64,000 nt of DNA. It comes from Patescibacteria group bacterium (GTDB lineage: Bacteria > Patescibacteriota > JAHJAL01). Location of the stretch: assembly GCA_041648895.1 (NCBI GenBank), contig JBAZOB010000001.1, forward strand, positions 15,093 to 79,092. The letters run 5' to 3'. The notes beneath the pieces are model-generated. The model did not search any database, was not told the DNA's origin, and worked only from the letters and a program-made list of their open reading frames with translations. Position 1 is the first letter of the stretch; the number at the start of each line of letters is the position of its first letter. Both the position numbers and the translations under genes were made by a program. Of this stretch, positions 2,422 to 35,768 are shown piece after piece.

Positions 2422-2440
2422 TGTTTATTTTTTATAATTA

Positions 2441-2508
2441 AAGGATCAAGTATCAAGGATCAAGTGCCAAGTGACTTGAAACTTGATCCTTGATACTTGA
2501 AACTTGAT
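2441..2508. repeat. ACTTGATCC/GGATCAAGT palindromic hairpin element with a 14-bp stem, lying between the two VirB4 halves.
   Basis: ATCAAGGATCAAGT ... ACTTGATCCTTGAT is a perfect inverted repeat. Related copies are at about 3226-3291 and 17803-17855. Confidence 0.75.
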
Positions 2509-2509
2509 G

Positions 2510-3241: not shown

Positions 3242-3291
3242 GGATCAAGTTTCAAGTCATTTGGCACTTGATTCTTGGTACTTGATACTTG
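3226..3291. repeat. ACTTGATCC-family palindromic element, copy 2.
   Basis: AAGGATCAAGTTCCAAGGATCAAGT...CACTTGATTCTTGGTACTTGATACTTG. It overlaps the putative TTG start of the upstream ORF. Confidence 0.65.
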
Positions 3292-4005: not shown

Positions 4006-4053
4006 TTGTTTTTATTACGAATGACGAATTATGAGGAACTTGTAGGGGCGGGG

Positions 4054-6714
4054 TTACTTGATAAACATTGCTAGATATGGTTTGAGTTCGTCTAATACGC
4101 CTTGTTGAATTAATTTATTGCGAATTTCGATGCCAGATCTTTTATCGTCGATCATTTTTGCTACAACTGGGTTATTTTGTACAAACTCTTTTTTAAATTC
4201 TTTTGTAGTTTTTGTGTTATTGTCGAAGAAATATTCGACTCTTTTTTCGTGACTATCGGTTTGAAAATTGGTATTACCATCTACCACCTTAAAATTTTCA
4301 CCACCTTGATGATCTTTATAAATATTGTTTATGCCGTTGTAGATTATCTGTTCGGTTGAATTGGCTGATCCTCCATGTGGGGGGACAAAATTTCGTTCAT
4401 TGGTAGTGAAATAATTAGAATTTTGAACAGTATTTTGAACGGATTGTTTGGCTTCCCCCGTTCTTTTGATGGCTTCTTTTATTTGATAATTGACTATGTT
4501 GTTGTCTGGACTACTGATAGCGCCATTTTTGTCGGTGCTAATATCTTTCAACAATTCGTTGAGTTTTTCGGCCCCAGCGTTTCTGGCGATATCTTGTGCG
4601 TTTTTAATATCGCCACCAGGTCTGATTTCGTCCATGATGGCTCTTAACGCAGCGGCACTTAAGTTTCCATGAGCGACACCAAGACGTTCACTGTTAATTC
4701 TGATATTATTTTCAGCATTTGTCTTTATTGTGTTAAATAATTTATTTACGGTAGTAAAATGATTATTAGCGTTTGGTTCGGATTTGTTATAACTTTCGAA
4801 TGCTTTACTTACTAACTGGTCTCCATTGGGGGGTGGAGTTACTCCGAAATTGCCGGCAGCGGCGTTAGCATTTGAAGTTTTAGCAATATTGACTATATCT
4901 GTGTCACTGAGATTTAGGTCTTTGGGATTTTTGGCTACATCGAGTAATGTGCCCTGATTTTCGGGGTTACGTTTGGTTCCTTTGACATTCATATATTCAT
5001 CAAATTCAATACCATTGGCTGTCATGAGTTGACCAAGAAGTTTTTCACCCAAAGCTTTTCTTTCTGGTTTAGCATCGTTTAATGACATTTGTTTTAGGGC
5101 GCCGAACATATTACTCAGGTTTTCTTGAACAGCACCCTCAGTATTTTTGCCATTGATCAAATTGTTGAATCCGGCCGAGTGGTCTTTTTTTGTTTCGTCG
5201 AATGCTCGTTTAAACTGATCTTCGTCCCAACTGTTGTACATGACACTTTCCATGGATTTATCTCTTCGTCTGGCAACGTTTTTCATGTCGCCAAGTCTTT
5301 CTAACTCGGTCATGTTGTTGTATCGTGTGTCGGTGGCCAAGTTTTTTTCAGCTTGGAGTTTGGCGGCTTCTCTACCGGCTCGCAATTTACCAAGACCACC
5401 AAATATACCACGACCACCAAATAATGTTTTTCCTGCCCAGCTTTCAGGCATAGGGGTTCCTAATATTGGAACTTTCTTTGGGAATTTAATACCAGATTCG
5501 GCAAGATGTCCGGCTCCTTCCTTGATACCCATTTGTTCCCAACCATATCCGCCGGCTTTTTTTCCTAGGTTAGTAATACCTGTGATAAGTTGTTGGCCGA
5601 TACCGCCTAGTTGGAAGGGAAGCATGATGGCGGCGATCATGACGGCGACGCCGGCAACATATCTAATGGCGCCATAAATCCAGCTGGTTTCTTGATATCC
5701 GCTAACTGGTGCGGCATGAGCAATGTCAAATATATTAATGTGATGTAATAATGAAGAAGTAGTGGGGTAAGTGTATGTTTGGTCGCCGAATAAGGTGGCT
5801 AGATATAAGAGGAAGAATACGGCTGGAGCCAAAAATATCCAAGTGAATAATTGTTTTACATACGTTTCTCCAAAAGATCGGGTGGGAGGAAATGAGTAAA
5901 AAATAATGGCAATGGGGGCGATGGTGATCAAGATGAAGATAACCATATATCGAGCGAGAAAGACAAGTGAAAGGATAAATAGCAGTATTGTGGGGAGTAG
6001 ATATAAAATAAGGGCGCCAGTGACGACGGCTAGTATTATTATTCCTCCCCATGGGTTAGCGGCACCAGCGATACCGAGGCCCGCGATAGCCCCTATTGGC
6101 CAAAAAAATCCGAACCAATTTGCTAAAGCATCTCCAGTTTTAATAGCATTACCAGTGACAGGGTCAATGGCAAAATCCATACCAGTTGACAGTCTTATTA
6201 GTCGGCAAGCTAAACTGCAAGAGGGATCAGATATGTTGTGTAATAATTCGTTGACGAGTAGGTCGGAAAAATCAAGTAGAACGGATATAATTAGGAAACT
6301 TAAGTTAGCTAATACGAAGCCAGCGATTAGGGACGGCAGAGTTTTCTTAATTTCGTAGGTATTTATTTCCAGTCTGGTAGCGTTGGCAAAGGCGATGGCG
6401 ATTAAAAATAGAACGAAAAATATGTTGACGAAATATATAGAATATTGCCAGCCAGTTTGAAATGAGGTTATGCTGGTGTCGATGTGTGAGGTCCCATCTA
6501 ATAATCTGATGGCAACGTTTGTTAGCCAATAAAGAATATGAAAAACTAGAGCGGCTAGAGTGAAGATACCGTTGACAAGTGTATCTTGCCACCAACTACC
6601 ACCGGCTGCGGCTTGATCGGGAAAGTAGTCTTTCATGGTTGGAGTAGCTGAGATTATATGTATGGCTTGGGAAAAAGATGATTGAATTGTCGATAGGTCT
6701 AACAAATGTTCCAT
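4054..6714 (-). CDS. VirB6/TrbL-like polytopic membrane protein with a large hydrophilic C-terminal domain; paralog of 6755..9025.
   Basis: Multiple TM helices. The block GWQYSIYFVNIFFVLFLIAIAFANATRLEINTYEIKKTLPSLIAGF is shared with the next ORF. Position within the T4SS locus supports the call. Confidence 0.5.
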   Translation of the reverse strand: MEHLLDLSTIQSSFSQAIHIISATPTMKDYFPDQAAAGGSWWQDTLVNGIFTLAALVFHILYWLTNVAIRLLDGTSHIDTSITSFQTGWQYSIYFVNIFFVLFLIAIAFANATRLEINTYEIKKTLPSLIAGFVLANLSFLIISVLLDFSDLLVNELLHNISDPSCSLACRLIRLSTGMDFAIDPVTGNAIKTGDALANWFGFFWPIGAIAGLGIAGAANPWGGIIILAVVTGALILYLLPTILLFILSLVFLARYMVIFILITIAPIAIIFYSFPPTRSFGETYVKQLFTWIFLAPAVFFLLYLATLFGDQTYTYPTTSSLLHHINIFDIAHAAPVSGYQETSWIYGAIRYVAGVAVMIAAIMLPFQLGGIGQQLITGITNLGKKAGGYGWEQMGIKEGAGHLAESGIKFPKKVPILGTPMPESWAGKTLFGGRGIFGGLGKLRAGREAAKLQAEKNLATDTRYNNMTELERLGDMKNVARRRDKSMESVMYNSWDEDQFKRAFDETKKDHSAGFNNLINGKNTEGAVQENLSNMFGALKQMSLNDAKPERKALGEKLLGQLMTANGIEFDEYMNVKGTKRNPENQGTLLDVAKNPKDLNLSDTDIVNIAKTSNANAAAGNFGVTPPPNGDQLVSKAFESYNKSEPNANNHFTTVNKLFNTIKTNAENNIRINSERLGVAHGNLSAAALRAIMDEIRPGGDIKNAQDIARNAGAEKLNELLKDISTDKNGAISSPDNNIVNYQIKEAIKRTGEAKQSVQNTVQNSNYFTTNERNFVPPHGGSANSTEQIIYNGINNIYKDHQGGENFKVVDGNTNFQTDSHEKRVEYFFDNNTKTTKEFKKEFVQNNPVVAKMIDDKRSGIEIRNKLIQQGVLDELKPYLAMFIK

Positions 6715-6754
6715 ATTTTATATAAATATTATTTTTATGAAAAAAATTATTTAA

Positions 6755-9025
6755 TTACGCGGTATTGATTGGTGGAACGGTGTTGTATTTGGGGATGGTG
6801 GTGGAGACGGGGCGGGGAGTGGAGGTGGCGGTGGTGGCGGAAGATGGGGCGGAGGATGGGGTGGCGTCGAGGCCTTTTTGGACGGTGGTGGAAATGTTTT
6901 GGCTAGAAGTAAGTTGAGTGGTGATCTGGTTGAGAGTGGTTAGGGTTTGATAGTTATTGTTGGTTTGCTGGCCTTGTTGGATGAGTTGTTTGAGTTCGGG
7001 GCTAGAGGCGGCGTCAATGGCGGCCTTGATGTCGCCATTGCGGACGCTGGTCATGATGCCGCGGACGTTATCGGCGCTAATATTAGGGTTGTTTTTAATA
7101 ATTTGAGTAGCTTGTTGAGAACCTTTGGATTGAATATCACGGTTGTAGCTGACCAGGTCATTGAGGCTTTGGAGTTTGACACCCTCACCGGTGGTGATAT
7201 TGGCGGCGCTAATGTTGGAGTCATATTGGTTGCGAACTTCGACGGGGATAGATTGAATGATTTTATTGGTTTCGGCCGGAGTTTTGGCGTCAGCCAGAGC
7301 AGCAACGGTGGAGCGGTCGGAAACATAACTGGCGACATTGAATTGAGGGGGAGTGCCACTGGTGAGCTGGTCAACGGCCACGCCCATTTTTTGACTTAAT
7401 TCGTTGCCTTTCCATTCAATCTTTTGGCCGGTACCAGTGCCGGCGCCACCGCCGCTGCCAGTATTGCCAGCACCTCCGGCACTGCCCGCGGCAAGAGGAC
7501 TTATTTTATTTTTTGATGCTTGGGTTTTATCTTTTCTCTGGGCTTCCGCGCCAATTTGTTTAGCTTTTTCGCGCCAGGCGTTGAGCCGTTTTTGGTATTC
7601 CTGGAAAGATCTGGTGAGAGGGTTATTGCGGTCTTGGTTTTTATTTTGTGGTTCTTCGGTCATTACCTCAGCTTCTTTTTCAGTTTTATTAAATCCAGCG
7701 ATGAATTTATTTGACTGGGTTTCGGGAGTGTTTTGGTTGGCGAGCGAAGTGCCGCCGCCGGTGGGGCCAATATAGTTGCCTTGTTCATCAATATTTGTTA
7801 AAGCGGTGCGGGGGAAAGTTGGGGGAGGAGCGACAGTTCCGGTTGATTGTGGGGGCACGCCCCCGCCAATACCACGGGTCATGGGATTGTTGCCGCCGAG
7901 TAGATTGGTGACGGCGCGGAGGGGATTTTGTCCGTAGAGCGGAGCCATCATCAGGTAGCTGGTGATTTGCTGGCCGAAGCTGGAAAGGGATAGGGGGATA
8001 AAAATAGCGAATAAAAGGACAAAAATGCCGGACATGTAGCTGACAATTGTTTGGGTAAAATCATTGTCATTGACGTCGACAGTGGGAGAAAAAATGGTCG
8101 AGAGACCGAGGATAAAAAATATAATGGGCAGGATAAAATTCCAGGTGAGGAAGTAGTTGAGCCATTTTTCGCCAATGGCTTTGGAGGGGGGAAAGAAAAG
8201 TAAGATAATGCCCAGTGGGGCCAGGACGATCAGAATGTACAGGATGATATTGCGGATGATGCTGACAAACGCCAGGACGATAATGGCCAGACAGGGCAAA
8301 GAGTAAAAAAAGGCGGCGATAAGTAAATTGATGATCAGTTTCAGTTCAGCCAGTTCGGCTTCGTCGCCGATGTTGTTTACTGCCAATACGATGGTATTTA
8401 GATCGGTGGAGCTGAAACGGTCGATAAAAGCATTGAGCATGTTGGTATTGGTACCGCTTAAGTCAATACCGATGGTCGTATTTAGTACTTTGTTGATGAT
8501 ATCTCCGCCGAAGATGGTATTGAGTTCAACAATCATCAAGTCGCCAACATCGAGCAGAGCTTTGCAGAGCAATAGACTAAAGTTGGCAATAATGAAGCCG
8601 GCAATCAGGGCAGGCAGAGTTTTTTTGATGGCATAGGTTTCAATGTTCAGGCGCAGGGCGTTGGCCAGAGCAATGGCAATCAGGACAAATATGGCGATAA
8701 TGTTGACAAAGAAAATGGCGTAACCCCAACCGGTTTCCAGCTGGTTGTTTTCCAGGCTGACGTACTGTGAATTTTCCACCACATTGGCGGCCAGTTTGGA
8801 GAAGGTGCCAAGGATACTGAGCCAGCTGATAATTTGTTGGGCAATGGCTTGGGCCAGGGAGGAAATGTGTTCTAAATCTTCGATGTCAAACATCTCAGCA
8901 AATCGCAGCAGGATTTTGCTGAGATTGGAATCTTCCGCCAGGTAACCAATGGCATAAAAACTACTGAGTAGGATTGACGACATTATAGAGATGGCTACAA
9001 TGAATAAATCATAATATTGTACCAA
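6755..9025 (-). CDS. VirB6/TrbL-like polytopic membrane protein, paralog 2, with a Gly/Thr/Pro-rich C-terminal region.
   Basis: ETGWGYAIFFVNIIAIFVLIAIALANALRLNIETYAIKKTLPALIAGF is paralogous to 4054..6714. The called start is TTG at 9025; an in-frame ATG at about 8983 is an alternative. Confidence 0.5.
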   Translation of the reverse strand: MVQYYDLFIVAISIMSSILLSSFYAIGYLAEDSNLSKILLRFAEMFDIEDLEHISSLAQAIAQQIISWLSILGTFSKLAANVVENSQYVSLENNQLETGWGYAIFFVNIIAIFVLIAIALANALRLNIETYAIKKTLPALIAGFIIANFSLLLCKALLDVGDLMIVELNTIFGGDIINKVLNTTIGIDLSGTNTNMLNAFIDRFSSTDLNTIVLAVNNIGDEAELAELKLIINLLIAAFFYSLPCLAIIVLAFVSIIRNIILYILIVLAPLGIILLFFPPSKAIGEKWLNYFLTWNFILPIIFFILGLSTIFSPTVDVNDNDFTQTIVSYMSGIFVLLFAIFIPLSLSSFGQQITSYLMMAPLYGQNPLRAVTNLLGGNNPMTRGIGGGVPPQSTGTVAPPPTFPRTALTNIDEQGNYIGPTGGGTSLANQNTPETQSNKFIAGFNKTEKEAEVMTEEPQNKNQDRNNPLTRSFQEYQKRLNAWREKAKQIGAEAQRKDKTQASKNKISPLAAGSAGGAGNTGSGGGAGTGTGQKIEWKGNELSQKMGVAVDQLTSGTPPQFNVASYVSDRSTVAALADAKTPAETNKIIQSIPVEVRNQYDSNISAANITTGEGVKLQSLNDLVSYNRDIQSKGSQQATQIIKNNPNISADNVRGIMTSVRNGDIKAAIDAASSPELKQLIQQGQQTNNNYQTLTTLNQITTQLTSSQNISTTVQKGLDATPSSAPSSATTATSTPRPVSTTIPKYNTVPPINTA

Positions 9026-9111
9026 ATTTCTTCCCTATCTGTCAAGGTTTATGATTTTTAAATTACCTTATTTTCAATTAAATAGATTATATATTAACAA
9101 GCGGGGGGAAT

Positions 9112-9280
9112 AATTACAAATTAATGGGTTGTACTTATTAGTCATTTCCCCTGTCATCCCCGCCTTGAGCGGGGATCTCATATGTAACGCGTTTATTACA
9201 GTCTTGATGATGAGATCCCCGCTCAAGGCGGGGATGACATATAAAGAGATTAATTCAGACTACTCATTAATTTGTAATTT
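9112..9280. repeat. GC-rich palindromic MITE-like element, copy 2, with AATTACAAAT heptamer-repeat arms.
   Basis: AATTACAAATTAATGGGT ... TGTCATCCCCGCCTTGAGCGGGGATCTCAT - spacer - ATGAGATCCCCGCTCAAGGCGGGGATGACA ... ACTCATTAATTTGTAATT. The outer arms are also inverted repeats. Confidence 0.8.
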
Positions 9281-9322
9281 TATTTATCAATAAAAACAGT
9301 CTCCTGTTTTTAAGGAGACTGT
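9280..9322 (-). terminator. Rho-independent terminator downstream of pilin 9349..9693.
   Basis: ACAGTCTCCT-GTTTTTA-AGGAGACTGT forms a 10-bp stem. On the minus strand it is followed by a TTTTATT tract. Confidence 0.6.
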
Positions 9323-9348
9323 AATGAAAAATATGTGCTTATTTATTA

Positions 9349-9693
9349 CTACCCTCGTCGGATTTCATCAATAATGTAACTTACGATCAGGCTGGCAGAG
9401 ACGATCAGGATGAGGCCGATGACTGACCAGGTGATGGTACTGATGGCTTTTTTGGATTCTTCTGGATTGCCGGTGGCGGTGATGTATTTGTAGCCACCAA
9501 TGATGGCAAAAGCGACCGCAATTAGTCCGGACAGTACAGTGGCCACATTGATCAATGTGCCGAGAAAATCATAGATAGTCACATTTTCGTCCAGTGGATT
9601 GAGTTTTTTTAATTGATCAGCAAAATTGAGGGCAAGTATTGGCCACGGCGTTTGAGCAAGAAAATCGGCGAGCGAATTTATTGGTGGCAACAT
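9349..9693 (-). CDS. TrbC/VirB2-like T4SS pilin of the CPR-type T4SS_pilin family, paralog 1.
   Basis: Family motif IIGGYKYITATGNPEESKKAISTITWSVIGLILIVSA follows an N-terminal hydrophobic leader. Confidence 0.7.
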   Translation of the reverse strand: MLPPINSLADFLAQTPWPILALNFADQLKKLNPLDENVTIYDFLGTLINVATVLSGLIAVAFAIIGGYKYITATGNPEESKKAISTITWSVIGLILIVSASLIVSYIIDEIRRG

Positions 9694-9733
9694 GATATAA
9701 TATTACTTCTTAATTTGGCAGAGGGGCTTCGCG

Positions 9734-10114
9734 TTACTGATTCTCATCTACAACTGTATCTATTAGTTCTGTTCCGGGCAGAGCATTTTGAACTGTGACA
9801 ACAATGGCGTAGGCAGCAAAGATAACAACTAGACCAATAACGGCGTTGAGCAAGGTTTTGGTGGCTTTTTTATTTTGTTCTTCATTACCGCCGGCGGTAA
9901 TGTAGTTGAAACCGCCAATAATGAGGTAGATTACGGCTACCAAACCAGCGGCGCCCAGGATGTAGTTAATAACAGTGAAGGCAAATGTTTCTGCCGTGCC
10001 TTTGAAACCCATAAAAGTGCTGGTGGCGGTGGCGGCATTGGCAGCTAGTGTGCAGTAGACCATTGTATAGGCGGTCAAACCAGCGGCGCTGATTTTTTTG
10101 GCCAGTTTACTCAT
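9734..10114 (-). CDS. TrbC/VirB2-like T4SS pilin paralog 2.
   Basis: IIGGFNYITAGGNEEQNKKATKTLLNAVIGLVVIFAAYAIVVT, with a signal-peptide-like N-terminus. Confidence 0.7.
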   Translation of the reverse strand: MSKLAKKISAAGLTAYTMVYCTLAANAATATSTFMGFKGTAETFAFTVINYILGAAGLVAVIYLIIGGFNYITAGGNEEQNKKATKTLLNAVIGLVVIFAAYAIVVTVQNALPGTELIDTVVDENQ

Positions 10115-10150
10115 AGTTTTTACTCCAAAAAATTATTTAATAATTACAAA

Positions 10151-10528
10151 TTAAAAGGGCCAGGTGCTTGATTGATAGTTAATGGCGTTTTCGATGGAAA
10201 CTTTGATGGCATAGGCGGCGAAAACGACCAGGAGGCCAATGACGGCGAAGGTGAGGGTTTTGGTGGCTTTTTTGTGGGTTTCTTCGTTGCCGGCGGAGGT
10301 AATGTATTGAAACCCGCCGAGGATAATAAAGACAACGGAAACGAGGCCGGCGATACTCAGGGCGTAATTGATGATGGCCATTATCAGGTCGACAGCATTG
10401 TCAAAAGGTAGGGGATTGTCGGGGGTAACGACATTAATTTCCGGTGGGGCAGCCAATATTTTTGGTGGATGCCACATGACCAGGCTGGTAAAAATAAAAG
10501 ACAGGATTGTGTGGTTTATTTTTTTCAT
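10151..10528 (-). CDS. TrbC/VirB2-like T4SS pilin paralog 3.
   Basis: ILGGFQYITSAGNEETHKKATKTLTFAVIGLLVVFAAYAIKV, with a signal peptide. Confidence 0.7.
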   Translation of the reverse strand: MKKINHTILSFIFTSLVMWHPPKILAAPPEINVVTPDNPLPFDNAVDLIMAIINYALSIAGLVSVVFIILGGFQYITSAGNEETHKKATKTLTFAVIGLLVVFAAYAIKVSIENAINYQSSTWPF

Positions 10529-10614
10529 GAGGGAAATATTCGCTGGTCAATTATTAATATATTATGAATAATTACAAATTACAAATGGTATAGATGGTGT
10601 GTTAATTTCTGTTG

Positions 10615-10643
10615 TGTCATCCCCGCTCAAGGCGGGGATGACA
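10615..10643. repeat. Solo GC-rich palindrome TGTCATCCCCGCTCAAGGCGGGGATGACA, a half-unit of the MITE-like family.
   Basis: Perfect 12-bp inverted repeat between pilin genes. Confidence 0.8.
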
Positions 10644-10649
10644 AAGAAG

Positions 10650-10988
10650 TTATTGTTCAATTTCTAATACGAGTTTCAGCGTTTCCAAAATGGTAGCGGC
10701 GGCGAGGACGATGACAAAGCCAATGATGGCATTGGTGATAGATTTTTGTCCTTCTTTGATTTTTTCTTCGTTACCGCCGGAAGTGATATATTTGTAGCCG
10801 CCAAAAATCAGGTAGGCAATCATGATCAGGCCGGCAAAGTAGTAGGCCCAGGTGAAGAGAGCAAAAATTAACTCTTCGACCGAGGCAAAATTACTGAGGG
10901 GATTAAGGCGATCGGGGAGGAGACTTCTTAATTGTTGCATGATGTCATCAGCGGCGGTAAAGGTGATTGGTTTGAATATTTGGTTCAT
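10650..10988 (-). CDS. TrbC/VirB2-like T4SS pilin paralog 4.
   Basis: IFGGYKYITSGGNEEKIKEGQKSITNAIIGFVIVLAA. Confidence 0.7.
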   Translation of the reverse strand: MNQIFKPITFTAADDIMQQLRSLLPDRLNPLSNFASVEELIFALFTWAYYFAGLIMIAYLIFGGYKYITSGGNEEKIKEGQKSITNAIIGFVIVLAAATILETLKLVLEIEQ

Positions 10989-11055
10989 TATCGATAATTA
11001 ATTACAAATTACAAATTTAGTTTGCCATCCTGAATATTAATAATACTTATAGTCA

Positions 11056-11454
11056 TTAATAATTTACCCTATCTAAATCCACCGTGGTGATTTCTTGGAG
11101 GAAGGTTTGGACAATGAGGTAGGCGATGATGGCGACTACGAAGCCAATGATGGCCCAAGTCAGGGTGTTTTTGGCGGCGGTGGCTTGTTCTTGATTGCCT
11201 TTGCTGTAGATTAGTTTGATGCCTCCCCAAATAATAAATATGACGGCGACCAATCCGGCCAGACCGATCAAGTTACTACCGATATAGATAACAAAACGCA
11301 GAATGTCTTCAAATGTGATTTTTTGGGCTTCATGGCCGAAGTCGAAGCCGAATAATTTCAGATTGTCGGCGGCCAAAACTTTTTGGGGGAGGAATGTTAT
11401 TAACAACCCGATGGTGGAGGTAAATGGTAGGAGTTTTTTGGTGATATTTTTCAT
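11056..11454 (-). CDS. TrbC/VirB2-like T4SS pilin paralog 5. Start trimmed to the internal ATG (MKNITKK...) to remove the overlap with the upstream pilin.
   Basis: IWGGIKLIYSKGNQEQATAAKNTLTWAIIGFVVAIIAYLIV. The tracked ORF 11056..11532 overlaps the next gene by 74 nt. Confidence 0.6.
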   Translation of the reverse strand: MKNITKKLLPFTSTIGLLITFLPQKVLAADNLKLFGFDFGHEAQKITFEDILRFVIYIGSNLIGLAGLVAVIFIIWGGIKLIYSKGNQEQATAAKNTLTWAIIGFVVAIIAYLIVQTFLQEITTVDLDRVNY

Positions 11455-11458
11455 AAAA

Positions 11459-11839
11459 TTATTGTCCCACCCCGATCCAGGTTTGGATGGTGCTGATGAT
11501 AACGACGCCGGAAAGGGCAATGATAAAGCCAATGATGGCGTTGACGAGAGATTTTTTGCCTTGTTCGACTTGTTGTTCGTTGCCCTGGGCGGTGACTAAA
11601 AGGTAACCGCTGTAGATAATAAAGCCAATGGCGACAAAGCCGGCCAGGGAAAGCGCGAAGCCGATTATACGCAGAAGAATGGGAGCGAGCATTTCGAATA
11701 GATTACCGTCATAGTTAATATCAAGTCCACTGGTAAAATCTTTGATGTAGTCTCGGGCGAATACTTTTTGGGGGAGGGAGGAGATTAGAAGTCCGAGGGT
11801 TGATATTAGTTGTAGGGATTTTTTTTGGATAGACGGCAT
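11459..11839 (-). CDS. TrbC/VirB2-like T4SS pilin paralog 6.
   Basis: IYSGYLLVTAQGNEQQVEQGKKSLVNAIIGFIIALSGVVII, with a signal peptide ending SLPQKVFA. Confidence 0.65.
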   Translation of the reverse strand: MPSIQKKSLQLISTLGLLISSLPQKVFARDYIKDFTSGLDINYDGNLFEMLAPILLRIIGFALSLAGFVAIGFIIYSGYLLVTAQGNEQQVEQGKKSLVNAIIGFIIALSGVVIISTIQTWIGVGQ

Positions 11840-11890
11840 AAATTAAGAATGAAGAATTAGATACTACTGATGTTTGAGAAAAAAGATATT

Positions 11891-12292
11891 TTATAGTTCT
11901 AGACCATGTTCGATAATTTCGTGTCGATCGCGATTATCCGTTTCAACTGTGCTGCTGGTGGGGGCGGGGTTGTTGATGATTTGGGGGGAAATGATGCGGA
12001 GGACAGTGTAGGCAAGTACCAATAATGCCAGGGAGACGAGGGCGGAGATGATGGTGCCGCGGCCTTTGTTGATCATGTCGGGATTGCCCTGGGAAATAAT
12101 CATGGTGTAACCACCGATTACTATCATGATAATCGAAACAGCGGCGATAAGCCAGATGGCATAGATATAAAAATCACTGACATAATCGGCCAGAGAAGTG
12201 TAGTTGCTGGTGCTTTCATTGATGGGAGCGCGGACGTCAACGCTACCATCGACGGCCAGCCAAGTTAGACTTTGGTAGAGTAAATTGATCAT
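11891..12292 (-). CDS. TrbC/VirB2-like T4SS pilin paralog 7, divergent.
   Basis: IGGYTMIISQGNPDMINKGRGTIISALVSLALLVLAYTVL. The ATGA start/stop overlaps the upstream SBP gene. Confidence 0.55.
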   Translation of the reverse strand: MINLLYQSLTWLAVDGSVDVRAPINESTSNYTSLADYVSDFYIYAIWLIAAVSIIMIVIGGYTMIISQGNPDMINKGRGTIISALVSLALLVLAYTVLRIISPQIINNPAPTSSTVETDNRDRHEIIEHGLEL

Positions 12293-17802: not shown

Positions 17803-17855
17803 AAGTATCAAGTATTAAATACTTAATCCTTGATACTTGAAACTTGATCCTTGGA
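17803..17855. repeat. ACTTGATCC-family palindromic element, copy 3, downstream of the amidase gene.
   Basis: AGTATCAAGTATTAAATACTTAATCCTTGATACTTGAAACTTGATCCTTGG, a nested palindrome. Confidence 0.65.
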
Positions 17856-23028: not shown

Positions 23029-23589
23029 ATGAGATTATTTTCTAAAATTGGCAAAAGGAAACGACGGACGGGGCGGATGAAGCAGAAGTCCAGTTGGTTG
23101 GATGGTATTCTTAAGAAAGCCAAACGGACAAATAAACGGGTAATCAAGCGAACGGTGCGAGGGGGGAATGGGCCGGCGGTTAAATCTTTTTTTGACTACC
23201 GTACTTTTTTGCGGTCGCGGCTTTTTAATGTTTCATTGATGATAGTGGCTGGCTATATGATATTTTTGACGGGACGGGAGGCTTTGGCCAATTACTATCA
23301 GTCAAAACAAATTGCCAAGATTGAAACGGAAAATAAAACTATTGAACAGAAAAATGAGGAATTAAAGTATCTTTTGGAGTATTATAAGACTGAGACCTTT
23401 GCGGAATTGGAGGCCAGACGGTATTTGAATTTAAAAAAACCGGGAGAAAGTGTGGCGATTGTTCCAGTTGATATGAATGAGATGCCGGTTGATGAGGGAC
23501 AACAACCGCCAGAATTAAAAGCGCGACCCAATTATAAGAAGTGGATCGATTTTATTTTTGCCGATATTAGTTCACTGCCGGATAATTAA
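23029..23589 (+). CDS. FtsB/DivIC-like septum formation initiator.
   Basis: Single TM helix (VSLMIVAGYMIFLTG), then coiled-coil IETENKTIEQKNEELKYLLEYYKTETFAELEARRYLNLKKPGE, typical of the Septum_form family. Confidence 0.6.
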   Translation: MRLFSKIGKRKRRTGRMKQKSSWLDGILKKAKRTNKRVIKRTVRGGNGPAVKSFFDYRTFLRSRLFNVSLMIVAGYMIFLTGREALANYYQSKQIAKIETENKTIEQKNEELKYLLEYYKTETFAELEARRYLNLKKPGESVAIVPVDMNEMPVDEGQQPPELKARPNYKKWIDFIFADISSLPDN

Positions 23590-23816
23590 TTACAAATGAC
23601 AAATGGCAGATTACAAATCACGAATGACGAATTGAATTAGTCATATATCATTTATTTTAATTAATGGCAGCAAAAGTTTGGTCGGTGGTGTTAATATGGA
23701 TCTATTTAATAATAGTAAGTTTTATGGCTAGCCATATAATTAAAATAAATGATATATGACTAATTCAATTCGTCATTCGTGATTTGTAATCTGCCATTTG
23801 TCATTTGTAATTAATT
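23585..23816. repeat. Large palindromic element A, about 230 bp. Arms of about 50 bp carry AATTACAAATG heptamer periodicity and flank a conserved ~100-nt core that contains TATAAT.
   Basis: AATTACAAATGACAAATGGCAGATTACAAATCACGAATGACGAATTGAATTAGTCATATATCATTTATTTTAATTAA ... core ... exact reverse complement. The core is about 85% identical to element B at 32671-32867. Confidence 0.8.
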
Positions 23817-23819
23817 TAA

Positions 23820-23906
23820 GGAAGGGTGGGAGAGCGGTTTAATCCGCACGCTTGGAAAGCGTGTATGGCCGCAAGGTCATCGAGGGTTCAAATCCCTCCC
23901 CTTCCG
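23820..23906 (+). tRNA. tRNA-Ser (anticodon GGA), type II with a long variable arm; no encoded CCA.
   Basis: Hand fold: acceptor GGAAGGG/CCCTTCC, anticodon stem CACGC/GCGTG with loop TTGGAAA, T-arm GAGGG-TTCAAAT-CCCTC, long variable arm. Confidence 0.8.
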
Positions 23907-23960
23907 TTTATATAAAAGGGATGCGAAATTTACACCCCTCTTTCTTAAATCAATATCAAA

Positions 23961-23981
23961 GGGTGAATCCCTCCCCTTCCG
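23961..23981 (+). repeat. Duplicate of the tRNA-Ser 3' end (GGGTGAATCCCTCCCCTTCCG), about 55 bp downstream of the tRNA.
   Basis: 19 of 21 nt match the T-arm/acceptor 3' half of the adjacent tRNA. Confidence 0.6.
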
Positions 23982-24083
23982 TCTTCGACCGCCATAGCTT
24001 GAGCGACGGCGGGTTTTGTTATCATAATAATTGTTTTTTCAGGGGTGAGATTTTTTAGCGTATTCGTAATTCCTATTTTTTTT

Positions 24084-25370
24084 ATGAAAAAGCGTCATTT
24101 TCAAAACAAATTAATTGCTGAGTTATTGAGTAATTGTCAAAAGGTTCCGGCTCGCTGTCCGCATTTTTTGGATTGTGGTGGGTGTAGCTATCAGGATTTT
24201 ACCTATGGTGATCAAATTAAGGTTAAGGAAAAAAAATTAAAGGAACTGTTTGGTGATTTGACGGCTGATACAAATGTATCATTTCAGGGCGGGCAGGAGT
24301 ATGGTTACCGGACGCGGATGGATTATATTGTTTCCAGTCAGGGATTGGGCCTGCGGCGCAAGCGGCGTTTTGATCAAGTGGTGGATTTACATGAATGTCA
24401 TCTGATTGATCCGGCGATATTTGGTTTTTTAAGATCAATCTATGAAGAGGGGATAAAGATCGGATTAATACCGTATGATTTGCAGTCAAAAACGGGATTT
24501 TGGCGATATCTTTCGGTGCGGGTCAATGAGAAAAATGATTTTATGGTTATAGTCAATACGACCAGTGATGAGAAATTGTATCCCTTGGTGGATGAATTAA
24601 TTGAAAAAATTACAAATAATATTGTCGGGGCGGGTTTTTCCCGCCTGCAATTGTGTGAGAAAGGGCGGGAGAACCCCGCCCGTACGAAAGTGGGTAATTT
24701 AGTTTCAATATATCATCTGATCAATGATGGATTAAATGATGACAATTTTGGTGAGGTGAGGCGGTGGTGGGGGGAAGAATTTTTAAAATTTAAAATTTTA
24801 AATCCTGGATCCGTGTCCAGGACAAGCTTTAAATTTAAAATAGGGCCGAATACTTTTTTTCAAAATAGTATAGAATTGTTGAATGGTCTAATAACTAAAT
24901 TGGTCGGATATATTGATGCCGATGATCAAGTGTTGGATTTGTATTGCGGGGTGGGAACGTTGTCATTGCCGGTGGCCAAAAAAGCGAAGCAAGTTTTGGG
25001 GGTGGAATTGATGGCGGAGAGTATTGAGTTGGCGAAGTTAAATGCGATAGATAATGGTATAACCAATGTTGATTTTGTGGTGGGAGAGGTGGAAAAAATA
25101 ATTACGAATGACGAATTACGAATTAGGAATTATGATGCATTAGTTTTGGATCCGCCACGTAAAGGACTGGAAAAGGCAGCCAGTGAGATAATGGAAATGG
25201 ATTTACAGAAAATTGTGTATATGTCATGCAATCCACTGACTTTAAAGAAAGATCTGGAGGTTTTAACAAAAAAATATCGATTGGTGGAAGCAAGCTGGTG
25301 GGATCTTTACCCGCAGACACCACATGTGGAAGGTTTGTGTTTATTGGTGGGCGATGGTGTCGAACTCTAG
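24084..25370 (+). CDS. RNA (uracil-5)-methyltransferase of the RlmC/RlmD/TrmA family with an N-terminal Fe-S cysteine cluster.
   Basis: CPHFLDCGGCSYQD cluster. SAM motifs LDLYCGVGTLSLP, VLDPPRKGL and YMSCNP. Start set at the internal ATG (MKKRHF). The CDS carries in-frame repeat insertions. Confidence 0.7.
   Translation: MKKRHFQNKLIAELLSNCQKVPARCPHFLDCGGCSYQDFTYGDQIKVKEKKLKELFGDLTADTNVSFQGGQEYGYRTRMDYIVSSQGLGLRRKRRFDQVVDLHECHLIDPAIFGFLRSIYEEGIKIGLIPYDLQSKTGFWRYLSVRVNEKNDFMVIVNTTSDEKLYPLVDELIEKITNNIVGAGFSRLQLCEKGRENPARTKVGNLVSIYHLINDGLNDDNFGEVRRWWGEEFLKFKILNPGSVSRTSFKFKIGPNTFFQNSIELLNGLITKLVGYIDADDQVLDLYCGVGTLSLPVAKKAKQVLGVELMAESIELAKLNAIDNGITNVDFVVGEVEKIITNDELRIRNYDALVLDPPRKGLEKAASEIMEMDLQKIVYMSCNPLTLKKDLEVLTKKYRLVEASWWDLYPQTPHVEGLCLLVGDGVEL
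24637..24683. repeat. GC-rich twin hairpin (GGGGCGGGTTTTTCCCGCC / GGGCGGGAGAACCCCGCCC) inserted in frame inside the rlmC-like CDS.
   Basis: About 70% GC in a roughly 38% GC gene. It encodes GAGFSRLQLCEKGRENPAR. The motif AATTACAAATAAT lies immediately upstream, the same architecture as the MITE-like family. Confidence 0.7.
25095..25135. repeat. Heptanucleotide periodic repeat (ATTACGA ATGACGA ATTACGA ATTAGGA ATTATGA) in frame inside the rlmC-like CDS.
   Basis: Five or six imperfect 7-bp units identical in type to the MITE and palindrome arm motifs, translated as ITNDELRIRNYDA. Confidence 0.7.
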
Positions 25371-25964
25371 TGGTATTATTTGGTAATTGGCTTGTGCAAG
25401 TAGTTGGTGACTGTCTTTTTTTTCTGATGTGGTTAAGTGGCGGTGTTCATAGTGAATGATATCAGGTTTAATCAGGGAAAAATCAATTGATTTTATAATT
25501 TGATAATCATAGCCCTCTGTGTCGATTTGGAGTAGATTTAGTTGGTCAATATGATGATCTTGGATAAGATTATTGAATGTTTGGCTGGGAACCGTGATCG
25601 ATTCAATTTCATTGGTATTCATCCGGCCAATATCGCCCCGATCGCGAGCCATAGTGGCAAAGCAGTTTTTCCAGTTTTCGGTGAGAGTATCCTGTTTGGG
25701 GCGATATAGTTTGACTGGTTGGTTATGATTGGAAATAGCCAGGTTCAATATTTTTATTTGTGGTGGTTGGTATTTTTTGGTTAATTGAGAGTAGTATTCC
25801 GGCTGGGGTTCGATGATTATCCCTGACCAGTGGTATGGTTGAATAAATTGATGGATAGGGTCATCAAAGACACCATCAAAACCACCAATTTGGATAAAAA
25901 ACATATTTTGGCGGCGGGATGGAGGAAGTTGATTAATAAATTGGGCAAAAGTTTTTACAGGCAT
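25341..25964 (-). CDS. FkbM-family methyltransferase.
   Basis: FIQIGGFDGVFDDP and LQIDTEGYDYQIIK match the Methyltransf_21 motifs. Convergent 30-nt overlap with the rlmC-like gene. Confidence 0.6.
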   Translation of the reverse strand: MPVKTFAQFINQLPPSRRQNMFFIQIGGFDGVFDDPIHQFIQPYHWSGIIIEPQPEYYSQLTKKYQPPQIKILNLAISNHNQPVKLYRPKQDTLTENWKNCFATMARDRGDIGRMNTNEIESITVPSQTFNNLIQDHHIDQLNLLQIDTEGYDYQIIKSIDFSLIKPDIIHYEHRHLTTSEKKDSHQLLAQANYQIIPLEFDTIAHQ

Positions 25965-25986
25965 ATGTAATTATTATAAACCAAAT

Positions 25987-26775
25987 ATGAGAGGAAACAG
26001 CGATCGATTTTATATCAAAAAAGGATTGGGGGAAGATTTATTATTGATTAATGATTTTGGCTTGATTAAGCAATGGCGGCGGGTATTGCGGTTGAATGAG
26101 GGTGACGTGTTGCGGTTGTTTGATGGCAGTGGTTGGGAATATATTTACGAAATAATATTAGCCCATGGTAATGGTAGGGGCACGGTGCCCGTGCCCAAAA
26201 CCGCGGGGATAAATTTGCAATTAGTCAATAAAAGATATGTCAAAGAGACAAAGAATAAAATAATTTTGGGATTTGGTTTATTGAAAAATCATGAACGAAC
26301 CGAGTGGATAATCGAGAAATGTACGGAGTTGGGGGTAGATGAATTTCAACCATTAATTACCGAGTATTCGCAAATTAACATCTTTAAAAATCGGACCAGG
26401 TTGGAGAAAAAAATTGTTGAAGCCAGTGAGCAGTCCGGCCGGGTACGTTTACCAAAAATGAATGACGAATTACAAATGACGAATTATAAACCAAATGATC
26501 AAAATATTAATGTGTGCATGGATGTAGGGGCGACCCTCGCGGTCGCCCAGGGCGGGCGCCAGGCCCGCCCCTACAATAATGGTGGCGCCGGGGTTATCCC
26601 GCCCGATTTTACCGGTAATATTTTGTTATTGGTTGGTCCGGAAGGAGGCTGGAGCGAGACAGAAAGAAAATGGTTAAGCGATCAGAAATTTAAATTCTGG
26701 TCAATTAATAATAATATTCTCCGGGCCGAGACGGCGGCGGTGGTGGGCGTGGGGATTTTAAAATGTCACCTTTGA
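25987..26775 (+). CDS. rsmE: 16S rRNA (uracil1498-N3)-methyltransferase RsmE with an in-frame palindromic insertion.
   Basis: C-terminal LLLVGPEGGWSETE...ILRAETAAV is the RsmE signature. The roughly 50-aa insert KMNDELQMTNYKPND...GATLAVAQGGRQARPYNNGGAG is not typical of the family. Confidence 0.7.
   Translation: MRGNSDRFYIKKGLGEDLLLINDFGLIKQWRRVLRLNEGDVLRLFDGSGWEYIYEIILAHGNGRGTVPVPKTAGINLQLVNKRYVKETKNKIILGFGLLKNHERTEWIIEKCTELGVDEFQPLITEYSQINIFKNRTRLEKKIVEASEQSGRVRLPKMNDELQMTNYKPNDQNINVCMDVGATLAVAQGGRQARPYNNGGAGVIPPDFTGNILLLVGPEGGWSETERKWLSDQKFKFWSINNNILRAETAAVVGVGILKCHL
26455..26490. repeat. Heptanucleotide periodic repeat (AATGACG AATTACA AATGACG AATTATA) in frame inside rsmE.
   Basis: Same 7-bp motif class as the arms of the palindromic elements. 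Confidence 0.7.
26524..26574. repeat. Perfect nested GC-rich palindrome of 51 nt (17 codons) in frame inside rsmE.
   Basis: GTAGGGGCG[ACCCTCGCGGTCGCCC AGGGCGGGCGCCAGGCCCGCCC]CTAC has outer 9-bp inverted repeats and two inner 8-bp hairpins. About 80% GC. Confidence 0.8.
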
Positions 26776-26809
26776 GCAAAGGTGACATTTTTCATTTATT
26801 TATAATTTA

Positions 26810-27451
26810 TTATGGGGCGTACCAGTCGATGGGATCGACGTTTTGGTAGTGGTCGCTGTCTTCGACAACGATATCGATATAATCGTGGGAGGGGCAACCA
26901 ATGTCCAAGCCACAAGTGACAAATTCGCTGTAGTAGGCTTTGTAGCTTGAGTCACCCAAGTAGGCATAGATGTTATAGGTGCCGGGTGGGACGACTAACT
27001 TGTAGCCGCGGCCGGCGGTGTATTTGGGGTCATCGATTAGATTAATAGTGCAAATATCATTGAAATTACCGGAGGTCTCTTGAGCGCAAACGGTCATGTC
27101 GGGAATAACTTCAGAGGGGTAAGAAAGGCTGCCTTCAATGGTGCCCGATGGGTTTGATTCTTCAATTGAATTTTTATCAACACTGGGATCGGTTTGATCG
27201 GAATCATCGTTTAATTTTTCCAGTTCTTTTTCGAGTTTCTCCAGTTCATCGGTAAAGGAATTGTCGAGTTGGTTGTTGGTTGTTTCCTGGACTATCTTTT
27301 GGCTGACAAAATAACCGCCGGCGATAGCCAGTATCGCGGATAGTATTGCCAAGATAACGGGTATAAGAATACAGGCGCCAATTATCCACCAGATGGTGTT
27401 ATTTTTGGAAGGAGAAGCTTGATTGGAATTAGGGGTTTGGTTGGCTGACAT
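26810..27451 (-). CDS. Membrane-anchored hypothetical protein: N-terminal TM helix, coiled-coil/acidic linker, C-terminal domain.
   Basis: WWIIGACILIPVILAILSAILAIAGGYF is the TM helix. ELEKLEKELEKL is the linker repeat. Confidence 0.5.
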   Translation of the reverse strand: MSANQTPNSNQASPSKNNTIWWIIGACILIPVILAILSAILAIAGGYFVSQKIVQETTNNQLDNSFTDELEKLEKELEKLNDDSDQTDPSVDKNSIEESNPSGTIEGSLSYPSEVIPDMTVCAQETSGNFNDICTINLIDDPKYTAGRGYKLVVPPGTYNIYAYLGDSSYKAYYSEFVTCGLDIGCPSHDYIDIVVEDSDHYQNVDPIDWYAP

Positions 27452-29293: not shown

Positions 29294-29410
29294 ATGAGAT
29301 CCCCGCCTTGAGCGGGGATGACATCATCAAGTTTATTATAAACGCCTTATTGATGAGATCCCCGATAACCGGAGCGCTCCGCTATGCTCCGCTTCCGGTC
29401 GGGGATGACA
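29294..29410. repeat. GC-rich palindromic MITE-like element, copy 4, closely related to copy 1.
   Basis: ATGAGATCCCCGCCTTGAGCGGGGATGACA ... GATCCCCGATAACCGGAGCGCTCCGCTATGCTCCGCTTCCGGTCGGGGATGACA, in the divergent pyrG/dnaG region. Confidence 0.8.
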
Positions 29411-34209: not shown

Positions 34210-34283
34210 TCCGGAGTAGCTCAGCTGGTTAGAGCGACTGACTGTTAATCAGTAGGTCGTGGGTTCGAGTCCCACCTCCGGAG
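34210..34283 (+). tRNA. tRNA-Asn (anticodon GTT); no encoded CCA.
   Basis: Hand fold: acceptor TCCGGAG/CTCCGGA, D-arm GCTC-AGCTGGTTA-GAGC, anticodon stem ACTGA/TCAGT with loop CTGTTAA, T-arm GTGGG-TTCGAGT-CCCAC. Confidence 0.8.
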
Positions 34284-35768
34284 TTTGTAAGAACACTCTT
34301 TAGCCTGCAGAAGAAGGTCGAAGGGTGTTTTTAGTTTGTAGATTATGTTTTCGTCTTTCAGTTGTAAGTTCGAAAATACGAATTTGAGTAATTGCCGTTT
34401 TTTGTCTATTTCCGAACTTTTGGCAAAAATTTGAGGAGCTTTGGAACAGACATTTAGTAGAAAGGTAACTGATTTTACGAATTTTTCATCAGCCTCAGTA
34501 TGATCTTTCATAGACTGAGTAATTTCATATTGTCTATTTTTTAAATCTTTGGCTTTTTTGTCATATTCATCTTGAGTAATACTCCTATTAATACAGAGGT
34601 CCAAGAGTGTATCAAGAGAGGTTTGAATTTTGGTGTATTCGGTTTGAAGTTCGGTAATACTATTTTTATGGTATTCAATTTTGGCTTGGTGAGTTTGGTT
34701 AACTTGATTAATTAGATCGGCGAGGATATCGTCCGGAATAACTAATAAATCGAGTATTTTATTGATTTGTTTTAATAATTGCTTTTCTTCCATTCTTTTG
34801 GCTCCGTGTTTGCCTTTTGATTCGGTACATTTGAGATAGATATATTTATTTTTCTTTTTGTCTGATGAGATAGCACATCCACAATCAGCACATTCAATCA
34901 TTCCTCGACCTAAAACTGAAGCATGGATAGTGGACCATTTGAAGGGTTTTTTGTGATAACCTTGGATAACATCCTGACAGCGATCAAATAATTCTTTAGT
35001 AATTAGATTACCGTGATTGTGCGGTGCTATATTTTCTTTAACTTTCATCATTCCGTAATAAAACGGATTGGTAATGACATGGTTTAACCGACTGTGGGAT
35101 AAATAATTATAGGGAGGTTTGTTGTTGGTAAGACCTTTCTTTTTCATTAAATTTGCTAATCCGCGGATGGAATAACTGCCGGTAGCATATAGGTTGAATA
35201 TTTCTTGGACCAAATACGCTCTTTGTTTGTCTATAATAATAATTTTTCTTTTTGTGATTGGGTCTTCTTCATTTAGATAACCAATTGGTGCTTTAGTTAG
35301 CCATTCGCCACGTTTGATTTTTCCTTCGAATGCGCGTTTGACGTTGTCGCTTATTGCATCGGAATAGTATTTGGCTAGTCCAAGATTCATGGCGAAATGA
35401 AATTTTTCAACGGCGGATATATTGGAATTAATAACAAGGTTATCTGAAACAAAGTGCATTTCAATTTTATCCAACATTGTCATCTCGTACAGGTTGGATA
35501 TTCTTTTATCAAAAACATTTCGGGAAAATCTATCAACTTTATCAAAACAAATTACTAATTTTTCTTTTGATTTTTTGATGTAATCAATCATTTTGTCAAA
35601 ATCATCTCTTTTGTTTCGATATGCTCCTTCGTCAAAACTGTATTGTTTAACGATGGGGAGGTCTTTTTTTTGACAATATTTAATCATCCGATCAGTTTGA
35701 GCTGGTAGGGAATTACCAGCGTCTTTTTGCTCTTCGGTTGATACTCTGGCTAATATTATGGCTTTCAT
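34245..35768 (-). CDS. Large serine recombinase (resolvase catalytic domain, recombinase domain, zinc ribbon); integrase of the downstream island. The 3' end overlaps tRNA-Asn.
   Basis: N-terminal MKAIILARVSTEEQ...SLPAQ (catalytic Ser). FDKVDRFSRNV. Zn ribbon CADCGCAIS...C. The last roughly 13 codons run through the tRNA-Asn 3' half on the opposite strand. Confidence 0.75.
   Translation of the reverse strand: MKAIILARVSTEEQKDAGNSLPAQTDRMIKYCQKKDLPIVKQYSFDEGAYRNKRDDFDKMIDYIKKSKEKLVICFDKVDRFSRNVFDKRISNLYEMTMLDKIEMHFVSDNLVINSNISAVEKFHFAMNLGLAKYYSDAISDNVKRAFEGKIKRGEWLTKAPIGYLNEEDPITKRKIIIIDKQRAYLVQEIFNLYATGSYSIRGLANLMKKKGLTNNKPPYNYLSHSRLNHVITNPFYYGMMKVKENIAPHNHGNLITKELFDRCQDVIQGYHKKPFKWSTIHASVLGRGMIECADCGCAISSDKKKNKYIYLKCTESKGKHGAKRMEEKQLLKQINKILDLLVIPDDILADLINQVNQTHQAKIEYHKNSITELQTEYTKIQTSLDTLLDLCINRSITQDEYDKKAKDLKNRQYEITQSMKDHTEADEKFVKSVTFLLNVCSKAPQIFAKSSEIDKKRQLLKFVFSNLQLKDENIIYKLKTPFDLLLQAKECSYKLRRWDSNPRPTD

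Follow-up and report, generated by a model that had tools for sequence, protein, structure and literature searches.

In a stretch of 64,000 nt from a Patescibacteria (candidate phyla radiation, CPR) contig (JBAZOB010000001.1, positions 15,093 to 79,092; 40% GC; hereafter the window), two genes for ribosomal RNA (rRNA) methyltransferases, one of the RlmC/RlmD family and the other of the RsmE family, carried short GC-rich hairpins of the GTAG-tagged repetitive extragenic palindromic (REP) type together with runs of the heptamer motif of this genome. We regard it as probable (about 0.7) that these repeats reside inside two intact genes and are tolerated there in permissive segments. The initial annotation of this region had likened the hairpins to Rickettsia palindromic elements (RPEs); judged by their sequence, they come closest, among named kinds, to intragenic GTAG-tagged REPs and not to the rickettsial RPEs. 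The units are arranged as one singleton and two head-to-head dimers, and intragenic in-frame GTAG REPs have already been described.

The two host genes were as follows.
24084..25370, + strand: gene for an RlmC/RlmD-family (TrmA-family, Fe-S) 23S rRNA m5U methyltransferase, 428 aa, uninterrupted open reading frame (ORF)
25987..26775, + strand: gene for RsmE (16S rRNA m3U1498 methyltransferase family), 262 aa, uninterrupted ORF

The longest ORF of the RlmC/D-like gene started at 24045, and the deposited 428-aa protein begins at the ATG at 24084. This protein was identical to P0121 and matched the Pfam family tRNA_U5-meth_tr (6e-27), while RsmE was identical to P0001, carrying the NCBI name 'RsmE family', and matched Methyltrans_RNA (3e-35) plus PUA_4. 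The identical NCBI proteins (MFA4930266.1 and MFA4930268.1) are annotated '[Patescibacteria group bacterium]' and come from a contig of 135 kb in a metagenome-assembled genome (MAG); both host proteins also gave sequence matches in the PDB. In protein alignments with the closest relatives, which were 42-50% identical in the case of RsmE and 48-64% in that of the RlmC/D-like protein, the Fe-S cysteine cluster, DPPR, SCNP and H..E were kept in the RlmC/D-like protein, and GPEGG and R.ETA were invariant in RsmE; a codon-by-codon comparison of the DNA was made with three orthologous loci. AlphaFold2 models built from the ortholog alignments had mean predicted local distance difference test (pLDDT) scores of 84.8 (RsmE) and 87.9 (RlmC/D-like), and the best Foldseek matches were RsmE structures (template modelling score, TM, 0.70-0.77) and RlmCD and RumA structures (TM 0.71-0.80), respectively. 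Preservation of the reading frame in both genes, as stated in the initial annotation, was borne out by uninterrupted ORFs with their family motifs kept, and frame disruption was rejected on the same grounds; both genes are thus intact and not pseudogenes. To call the enzymes essential, as had been done, was an overstatement; E. coli knock-outs of rumA and of rsmE are viable.

The hairpin-bearing elements in these genes were as follows.
26524..26574, + strand: head-to-head REP heterodimer with a 1-nt spacer in RsmE, GTAG-GGGCGACC CTCGC GGTCGCCC-A-GGGCGGGC GCCAG GCCCGCCC-CTAC
26174..26196, + strand: GTAG-tagged REP singleton in RsmE, GTAG-GGGCACG GTGCC CGTGCCC, 8-bp stem
24624..24685, + strand: degenerate head-to-head REP dimer (REPIN-like) in the RlmC/D-like gene, GTCG-GGGCGGG TTTTT CCCGCC, 17-nt spacer, GGGCGGG AGAAC CCCGCCC-GTAC
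24778..24841, + strand: TTTAAAA heptamer run plus TCCTGGAT..GTCCAGGA hairpin (CCTGGA element) with inverted TTTAAATTTAAAA flanks in the RlmC/D-like gene (TRF period 7, array scan, fold)

The element at 26524-26574 was present as first reported, a nested 51-nt palindrome of 17 codons (VGATLAVAQGGRQARPY), and comprised two different 8-bp hairpins inside an outer stem. Its RNA fold had an energy of -40.1 kcal/mol (z = -4.5), a stability reached by 0 of 200 shuffles, and positions 26527-26572 formed the largest GC island of the 64 kb (longest run at >=87% GC). It supplied 17 of the 14-20 extra amino acids found at this RsmE site relative to P0007-P0015 and coincided with residues 185-201, where the pLDDT was below 50. 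The singleton, which like the element at 24778-24841 is an addition to the initial annotation, lay in an insert of about 11 aa (GNGRGTVPVPK) absent from P0008-P0013; it folded at -18.8 kcal/mol (z = -2.8) and coincided with residues 62-64, again with pLDDT below 50. Among near-identical RsmE proteins, 7 of 14 differences fell in columns 169-205 of the 293-residue alignment, the stretch with the insert, as expected of weakly constrained loops.

In the RlmC/D-like gene, the twin hairpin earlier placed at 24637-24683 was real, with its left edge at about 24624, some 13 nt further left than thought. The dimer is translated as ..VGAGFSRLQLCEKGRENPART.., and its tags, GTCG and GTAC, are each one mismatch away from the GTAG/CTAC tag. 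Because its two units are mutually complementary, 24624-24685 adopts one long hairpin fold (-40.1 kcal/mol, z = -6.2). Relative to P0123/L003, the dimer inserts about 24 aa, and at the same RlmD site P0122/L002 had a different insert of about 40 aa with GAATTAC heptamers and a GTAG-tagged hairpin. The pLDDT was below 50 at residues 181-200, which coincide with the dimer; this stretch and the two in RsmE were the only ones below that value in both models and are exactly the residues coded by GTAG hairpins. The element at 24778-24841 added 8 aa (LNPGSVSR) found in none of the 21 other aligned sequences (22 in total) and lengthened a beta-hairpin loop (loop 239-246 between strands 233-238 and 247-252, block pLDDT 69).

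Alignments and predicted models together indicate that the GC hairpins are true lineage-specific in-frame insertions in predicted disordered loops, with the catalytic core untouched. To describe the behaviour of these palindromes as RPE-like was therefore fair, as they are lineage-specific in-frame insertions of a repeat type that colonises coding DNA elsewhere. The accompanying claim that all the features lie in segments absent from typical family members held for the GC hairpins (~24 aa; 14-20 aa), the peptides of which were lineage-specific in the ortholog alignment, but not for the heptamer runs, which brought no net length change and whose segments were of ortholog length.

A hairpin scan yielded 18 perfect GC hairpins in the window, compared with 1-4 in shuffles, and there were five in the two genes (24629-24645, 24663-24681, 26178-26196, 26528-26548, and 26550-26570). 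The five units measured 19-25 nt and had a common design of a 4-nt tag, GGGC..., a GC stem of 6-8 bp, a 5-nt loop (3 nt in a single case), and ...GCCC; each had its own stem sequence, and all were intragenic. Exact GTAG/CTAC tags were found at 26174, 26524 and 26571, that is, at 3 of the 5 units (chance 3e-6), and tags adjoined 7 of 10 units in the coding DNA of the clade (chance 6e-14). Period-7 arrays numbered 13 in the window versus 0-1 in shuffles by our own period scan, in which other periods gave 0-7. The RlmC/D-like and RsmE genes, amounting to 3.6% of the coding DNA, held 8 of the 11 in-gene arrays and hairpins (binomial 4e-10).

The first unit of the RsmE dimer belongs to a family that extends across phyla. 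A scan for the pattern GTAS-GGGCGACC-N5-GGTCGCCC, with one genome per species, returned at least 120 stretches, from Chloroflexota, Clostridia, Gammaproteobacteria, Planctomycetota, Acidobacteriota, Bacteroidota and others. Among the 157 matches listed, the head was GTAG in 151 and GTAC in 6, the loop was non-random (CTTGC 36, CTTGT 26, CTCGT 8, CTCGC 6), the flanks were unrelated, and many copies adjoined a second, different unit ending in CTAC; analysis of their open frames told nothing, long ones being frequent in GC-rich DNA. In a chromosome of Aggregatilineales (Chloroflexota; L098 4564-5212, OY760398.1), two inverted GTAG-GGGCGACC-N5-GGTCGCCC units flank a 181-aa ORF that scored 22.7 bits with Pfam Y1_Tnp (cutoff 23) and has thousands of homologs, several of which were named 'REP element-mobilizing transposase RayT' by JGI. 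This arrangement is a classical REPtron. A literature search for REPs or heptanucleotide arrays in Patescibacteria, for in-frame palindromic repeats in the CPR, and for the 25-mer itself found nothing relevant.

According to the relevant sections of the survey by Di Nocera, De Gregorio & Rocco (2013, PMC3733652), GTAG-tagged REPs form head-to-head dimers with the tags outside, including heterodimers, with spacers of 1-2 bp; intragenic in-frame units encode 20-30 aa, sometimes twice per gene, in hosts that include RNA-modification genes such as truB; and tagged REPs occur in 8 phyla. The window units resemble those described there in having a GTAG tag beside a short GC-rich stem-loop, in occurring as singletons and head-to-head dimers, and in lying in frame in genes that include RNA-modification hosts, twice in one gene; moreover, the family of one unit flanks a RayT gene. 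Unlike typical GTAG REPs, they reside in a 40%-GC Patescibacteria host, without intergenic copies, high copy number or a REP-associated tyrosine transposase (RAYT) in the 64 kb, and some of them are flanked by genome-specific heptamer runs. As portrayed in the passages of PMC10969869 and PMC3733652 dealing with them, RPEs (Ogata et al. 2000) are likewise palindromic repeats that sit in frame in genes of functional enzymes, where they add peptides considered fold-compatible, in a reduced genome. They belong to another phylum, and RPE-1, at 100-150 bp and with a conserved peptide, is far from units of 19-25 nt; R. conorii RPE-4 and RPE-6 are classed there as a CGTC-tagged counterpart, as opposed to the GTAG tags found here (PMC3733652); and RPE families are multi-copy per genome with recognisable identity, whereas the five units of the window differ in stem. 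On size and tag, the rickettsial element was not retained as the nearest kind.

Two heptamer arrays without hairpins were present in the same genes.
25100..25135, + strand: heptamer array in the RlmC/D-like gene, AATTACG AATGACG AATTACG AATTAGG AATTATG, read ITNDELRIRNYD; TRF 4.7 copies, 88% matches
26461..26490, + strand: heptamer array in RsmE, AATGACG AATTACA AATGACG AATTATA, read NDELQMTNYK; TRF period 14, 93%

Both runs had been noticed before, and their reality was confirmed by TRF and the period scan. The array at 25100-25135 changed the protein length by 0/+1 aa relative to P0123/P0122 and was modelled as helix (pLDDT 86-92); that at 26461-26490 changed it by 0 relative to P0007, P0010, P0012, P0013 and P0014 (block pLDDT 90-96), so that both were modelled as ordinary helix or strand. 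Their RNA folding energy was about 0 kcal/mol, and they were rejected as palindromic elements. They share the motif AATKACR, the signature of the window's intergenic DNA, where many spacers in the first 34 kb contained runs of at least 21 nt, which often bordered on start or stop codons. The heptamers of the window and of the sister loci are stop-free in all three phases on the coding strand, which accounts for the orientation of the arrays (A-rich strand coding), and the in-gene arrays give peptides with a 7-residue period. The short tandemly repeated repetitive (STRR) heptamers of cyanobacteria are known only from intergenic DNA; like these, the window motif is used outside genes, and unlike these, it is used inside genes too.

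[quoted passage not shown] Their cores consist of an inverted pair of the hairpin GTCA-TCCCCGC-CTTGA-GCGGGGA-TCTCAT, REPIN-like and with a GTCA tag, not GTAG, and in two copies (~480-530, 29355-29400) the second hairpin has a nested extra hairpin. A second heptamer family (AAGGATC/AAGTATC plus complement) formed intergenic hairpins at 2441-2507, 3226-3294 and 17819-17853, situated between genes of a type IV secretion system (T4SS)-like cluster and after an amidase gene.

The initial annotation had assigned the in-gene repeats to the same family as these intergenic MITE-like repeats. For the GC hairpins this was rejected, since stem and tag differ (GTCA-TCCCCGC-CTTGA-GCGGGGA versus GTAG-GGGC...GCCC); what the in-gene and intergenic elements have in common is only the AATKACR motif and an architecture of tagged dimers with heptamer flanks. 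Compared with MITEs that have in-frame insertions (PMC10969869), the intergenic elements of the window are similar in having inverted-repeat arms and no coding capacity, and a related element of about 50 nt in sister genomes is scattered, in frame, over at least three families of genes. Unlike in MITEs, the arms are heptamer arrays, not terminal inverted repeats derived from an insertion sequence (IS); no target-site duplication or parent IS was identified, and the in-gene GC units of the window have no sequence in common with the intergenic hairpins.

In sister Patescibacteria loci, period-7 arrays lay almost exclusively in RlmD, in RsmE or between genes, and none was found in the genes next to them (DnaG, sigma-70, CTP synthase and others). 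The heptamer was genome-specific and matched each genome's own intergenic arrays, with the following motifs.
Window and L002: AATKACR
L126: AATKAAG
L004: AAAACTC, AATATGC, AAGAAAC
L005: AAATCTC, AAAATCA
L001: AATTTTC

At the RlmD site equivalent to 25100-25135, there was an AATKAAG run in L126, and other arrays or REP dimers in L127, L004, L001 and L005. GTAG-tagged hairpins were found in RsmE of L004 (GTAG-GGGCGGAC..GTCCGCCC), in RlmD of L002 (GTAG-AGACGC..GCGTCT), and in RlmD of L005 (GTAG-TGGCAGGC..GCCTGCCA, 8 nt, then GGGCGACC CTTGC GGTCGCCC-GTAC); the second of these L005 units was one loop base apart from the unit in the window's RsmE, yet lay in the other gene, and the orthologs are about 50% identical. 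In L005, a head-to-head dimer lies at 5041-5097. In L001, an element of about 50 nt, in which AATTTTC heptamers surround CCCTCACGGGAYCGARCTGCTGCTG, occurred three times in 15 kb, always in frame, twice in RlmD and once in RsmE. An exact-match metagenome scan with its core gave 3 loci, namely another RsmE, an ORF for an O-antigen-ligase-like membrane protein in another MAG with the element in frame beside two GTAG-tagged hairpins, and a locus without a spanning open frame of at least 80 codons. In another Patescibacteria MAG (L097 176-1174, -), the consensus REP unit was in frame in a glycosyltransferase family 2 (GT2)-like ORF and read VGATLAVA. The orthologs in L003 and L128 were without such elements. 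These findings indicate that in-frame repeat insertion is general in this group and that the two methyltransferases are favoured, not sole, hosts. The O-antigen-ligase-like ORF at L130 4906-6486 (-) contains, in frame, a pair of GTAG REPs and a pair of FPSRDRTAAGNFQ-type elements with heptamer flanks.

REP units would have entered parts of the RlmC/D-like and RsmE genes in which extra residues are tolerated. By analogy with REPs and REPINs, they were probably deposited in trans by a Y1 transposase of the RAYT type that works on hairpins of single-stranded DNA; its gene may lie elsewhere in the genome or may have been lost, or the units may be relics. Inserts would persist when they are a multiple of three bases, have a stop-free frame, add a disordered loop of 8-24 residues and spare the catalytic core. 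A GC-rich unit would offer two open frames of three, the TAG of the tag closing the third, and selection would remove frame-breaking or disruptive events, such that only in-frame copies in permissive loops are seen. The heptamer runs would most likely stem from slippage, from gene conversion involving intergenic arrays, or from an insertion that was later trimmed, and may occupy naturally variable segments at unchanged length.

Several points weigh against tolerated REP insertion. Pfam and tblastn searches of the window and of about 95 kb of Patescibacteria loci detected no RAYT or Y1 transposase. The hairpin scan found no GTAG-GGGC...GCCC unit between genes of the window, and with five units in all of the 64 kb, neither the high copy number nor the extragenic siting typical of REPs was encountered. 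No ortholog was closer than 62-64% (RlmC/D-like) or 48% (RsmE), so that insertion is deduced across deep divergence, and no closely related 'empty-site' genome was found among the orthologs. For the heptamer runs, insertion is unproven, the net length being unchanged. Finally, permissive loops explain the strong concentration of elements in two genes only loosely.

It is unlikely that the segments are merely ordinary lineage-specific loops under protein selection, their hairpin and repeat character being incidental and nothing having been inserted. Such an account suits the heptamer-coded segments, which are of ortholog length and form normal helix or strand, and of which the helix ISNLKSQI is conserved in several RlmD orthologs. 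It is refuted for the GC hairpins by the record GC run, the perfect 8-bp stems, the tags, and the 25-mer common to unrelated phyla and other genes, and the peptides of the GC elements are predicted to be disordered. Equally unlikely is a wider scheme in which the two genes are preferred recurrent landing or conversion sites of a genome-wide repeat system marking gene boundaries and protein loops, with copies kept uniform by gene conversion or a dedicated enzyme and with heptamers acting as switches or tuners of rRNA methylation.

The hairpins might instead act at the RNA or DNA level, by mRNA stabilisation, ribosome pausing, or autoregulation via rRNA-like hairpins bound by the methyltransferases. 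This would explain the repeated targeting of the same two genes, which are enriched for elements in at least six genomes, and would agree with the very stable RNA folds and with the stems of the RsmE dimer, which are perfect although they fall in a coding region; a role as RNA elements is attributed to REPs elsewhere, as the pertinent part of the 2013 survey has it (PMC3733652). We nevertheless consider it quite unlikely, since position and sequence are unconserved between genomes, where different units sit in different loops or, in L003 and L128, there are none, and since other gene families host elements too. Nor did any terminator-like or other recognisable signal exceed chance: terminator-like matches in 23500-27000 numbered 4 versus 2.9 +/- 1.7 in shuffles, the lone in-gene match being 24678-24695, and internal intrinsic terminators were rejected. 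A real terminator was present downstream of RsmE at 26760-26791.

Even less likely are contingency loci of the neuO type, in which 7-nt slippage would switch the rRNA methyltransferases on and off. As precedent, the AAGACTC tract of E. coli K1 neuO is read through only if its copy number is divisible by 3 (PMC13001214), and the window arrays share with it 7-nt units that are stop-free in three phases and of a length not divisible by three, the 7-residue peptide period, and the A-rich coding strand; in addition, arrays recur in the same two genes across several genomes, and some sister arrays are perfect, (AAATCTC)x4 inside L127 RlmD and (AAGAAAC)x4 at the 3' end of L004 RlmD. The neuO tract is, however, long, perfect, 5'-terminal and demonstrably phase-variable, whereas the window arrays are internal, short and imperfect (4-5 units, 88-93%), which disfavours slippage, and they lie in structured segments where a frameshift would destroy the enzyme. 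No repeat-number or presence/absence variants were found in protein clusters of at least 90% identity, in which length differences reflected alternative start sites except for one extra C-terminal residue in P0249. An assembly or binning artefact, palindromic junk in a MAG contig, can hardly be the explanation: MAG assemblies can mis-join at repeats, but identical proteins are on record from NCBI, JGI, ENA and Logan, the inserts keep frame, and assemblies from other samples carry comparable elements at the same sites.

The space between the two host genes is occupied by a further gene.
25341-25964, - strand: gene for an FkbM-type methyltransferase, between the RlmC/D-like gene and RsmE

In L005, a 23S_rRNA_IVP (PF05635) gene (5400-5756) lies between RlmD and RsmE, where the window has the FkbM methyltransferase gene. 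Along the whole + strand of the window, G exceeded C strongly, (G-C)/(G+C) being positive in every 2-kb bin (0.10-0.46); the skew was positive whatever the gene orientation, with no switch within 64 kb, a strand asymmetry that is unusually strong. The minus strand carries a type IV secretion-like cluster (580-12292) that encodes a TraG-like ATPase, PrgI, two TrbL/VirB6-like proteins and, at 9349-12292, six tandem T4SS-pilin paralogs with heptamer arrays in nearly every pilin-gene spacer. The gene for tRNA-Ser(GGA) is at 23820-23906, and a duplicate of its 3' end (aatccctccccttccg) about 55 nt downstream, at ~23960-23985, is possibly a remnant attachment site. The tRNA-Asn gene (34210-34283) adjoins a gene for a large serine recombinase (34245-35768, minus), and the 34-56 kb region (31-39% GC), encoding an SNF2 helicase, DUF4391, a DNA methylase and a type III restriction-like enzyme and devoid of AATKACR arrays, is probably an integrated defence island. 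In L004, a serine recombinase directly follows sigma-70.

If GTAG REPs and heptamer repeats are indeed tolerated in these two genes, peptides such as VGATLAVA or FPSRDRTAAGNFQ would be repeat-derived rather than homologous protein, which calls for caution in annotation and in alignment-based phylogeny of the CPR. The analysis brings to light a 25-nt GTAG-REP unit with a conserved loop common to many phyla, alongside genome-specific heptamer arrays. It offers a concrete case in which RNA-modifying enzymes would gain disordered loops from short mobile hairpins; such enzymes recur as hosts in other phyla too, going by the intragenic examples that the 2013 survey describes (PMC3733652). In-frame colonisation of genes by REP-type selfish DNA would thereby extend to the ultra-small genomes of Patescibacteria, where coding loops may be the main refuge for such elements because about 90% of the DNA is coding.

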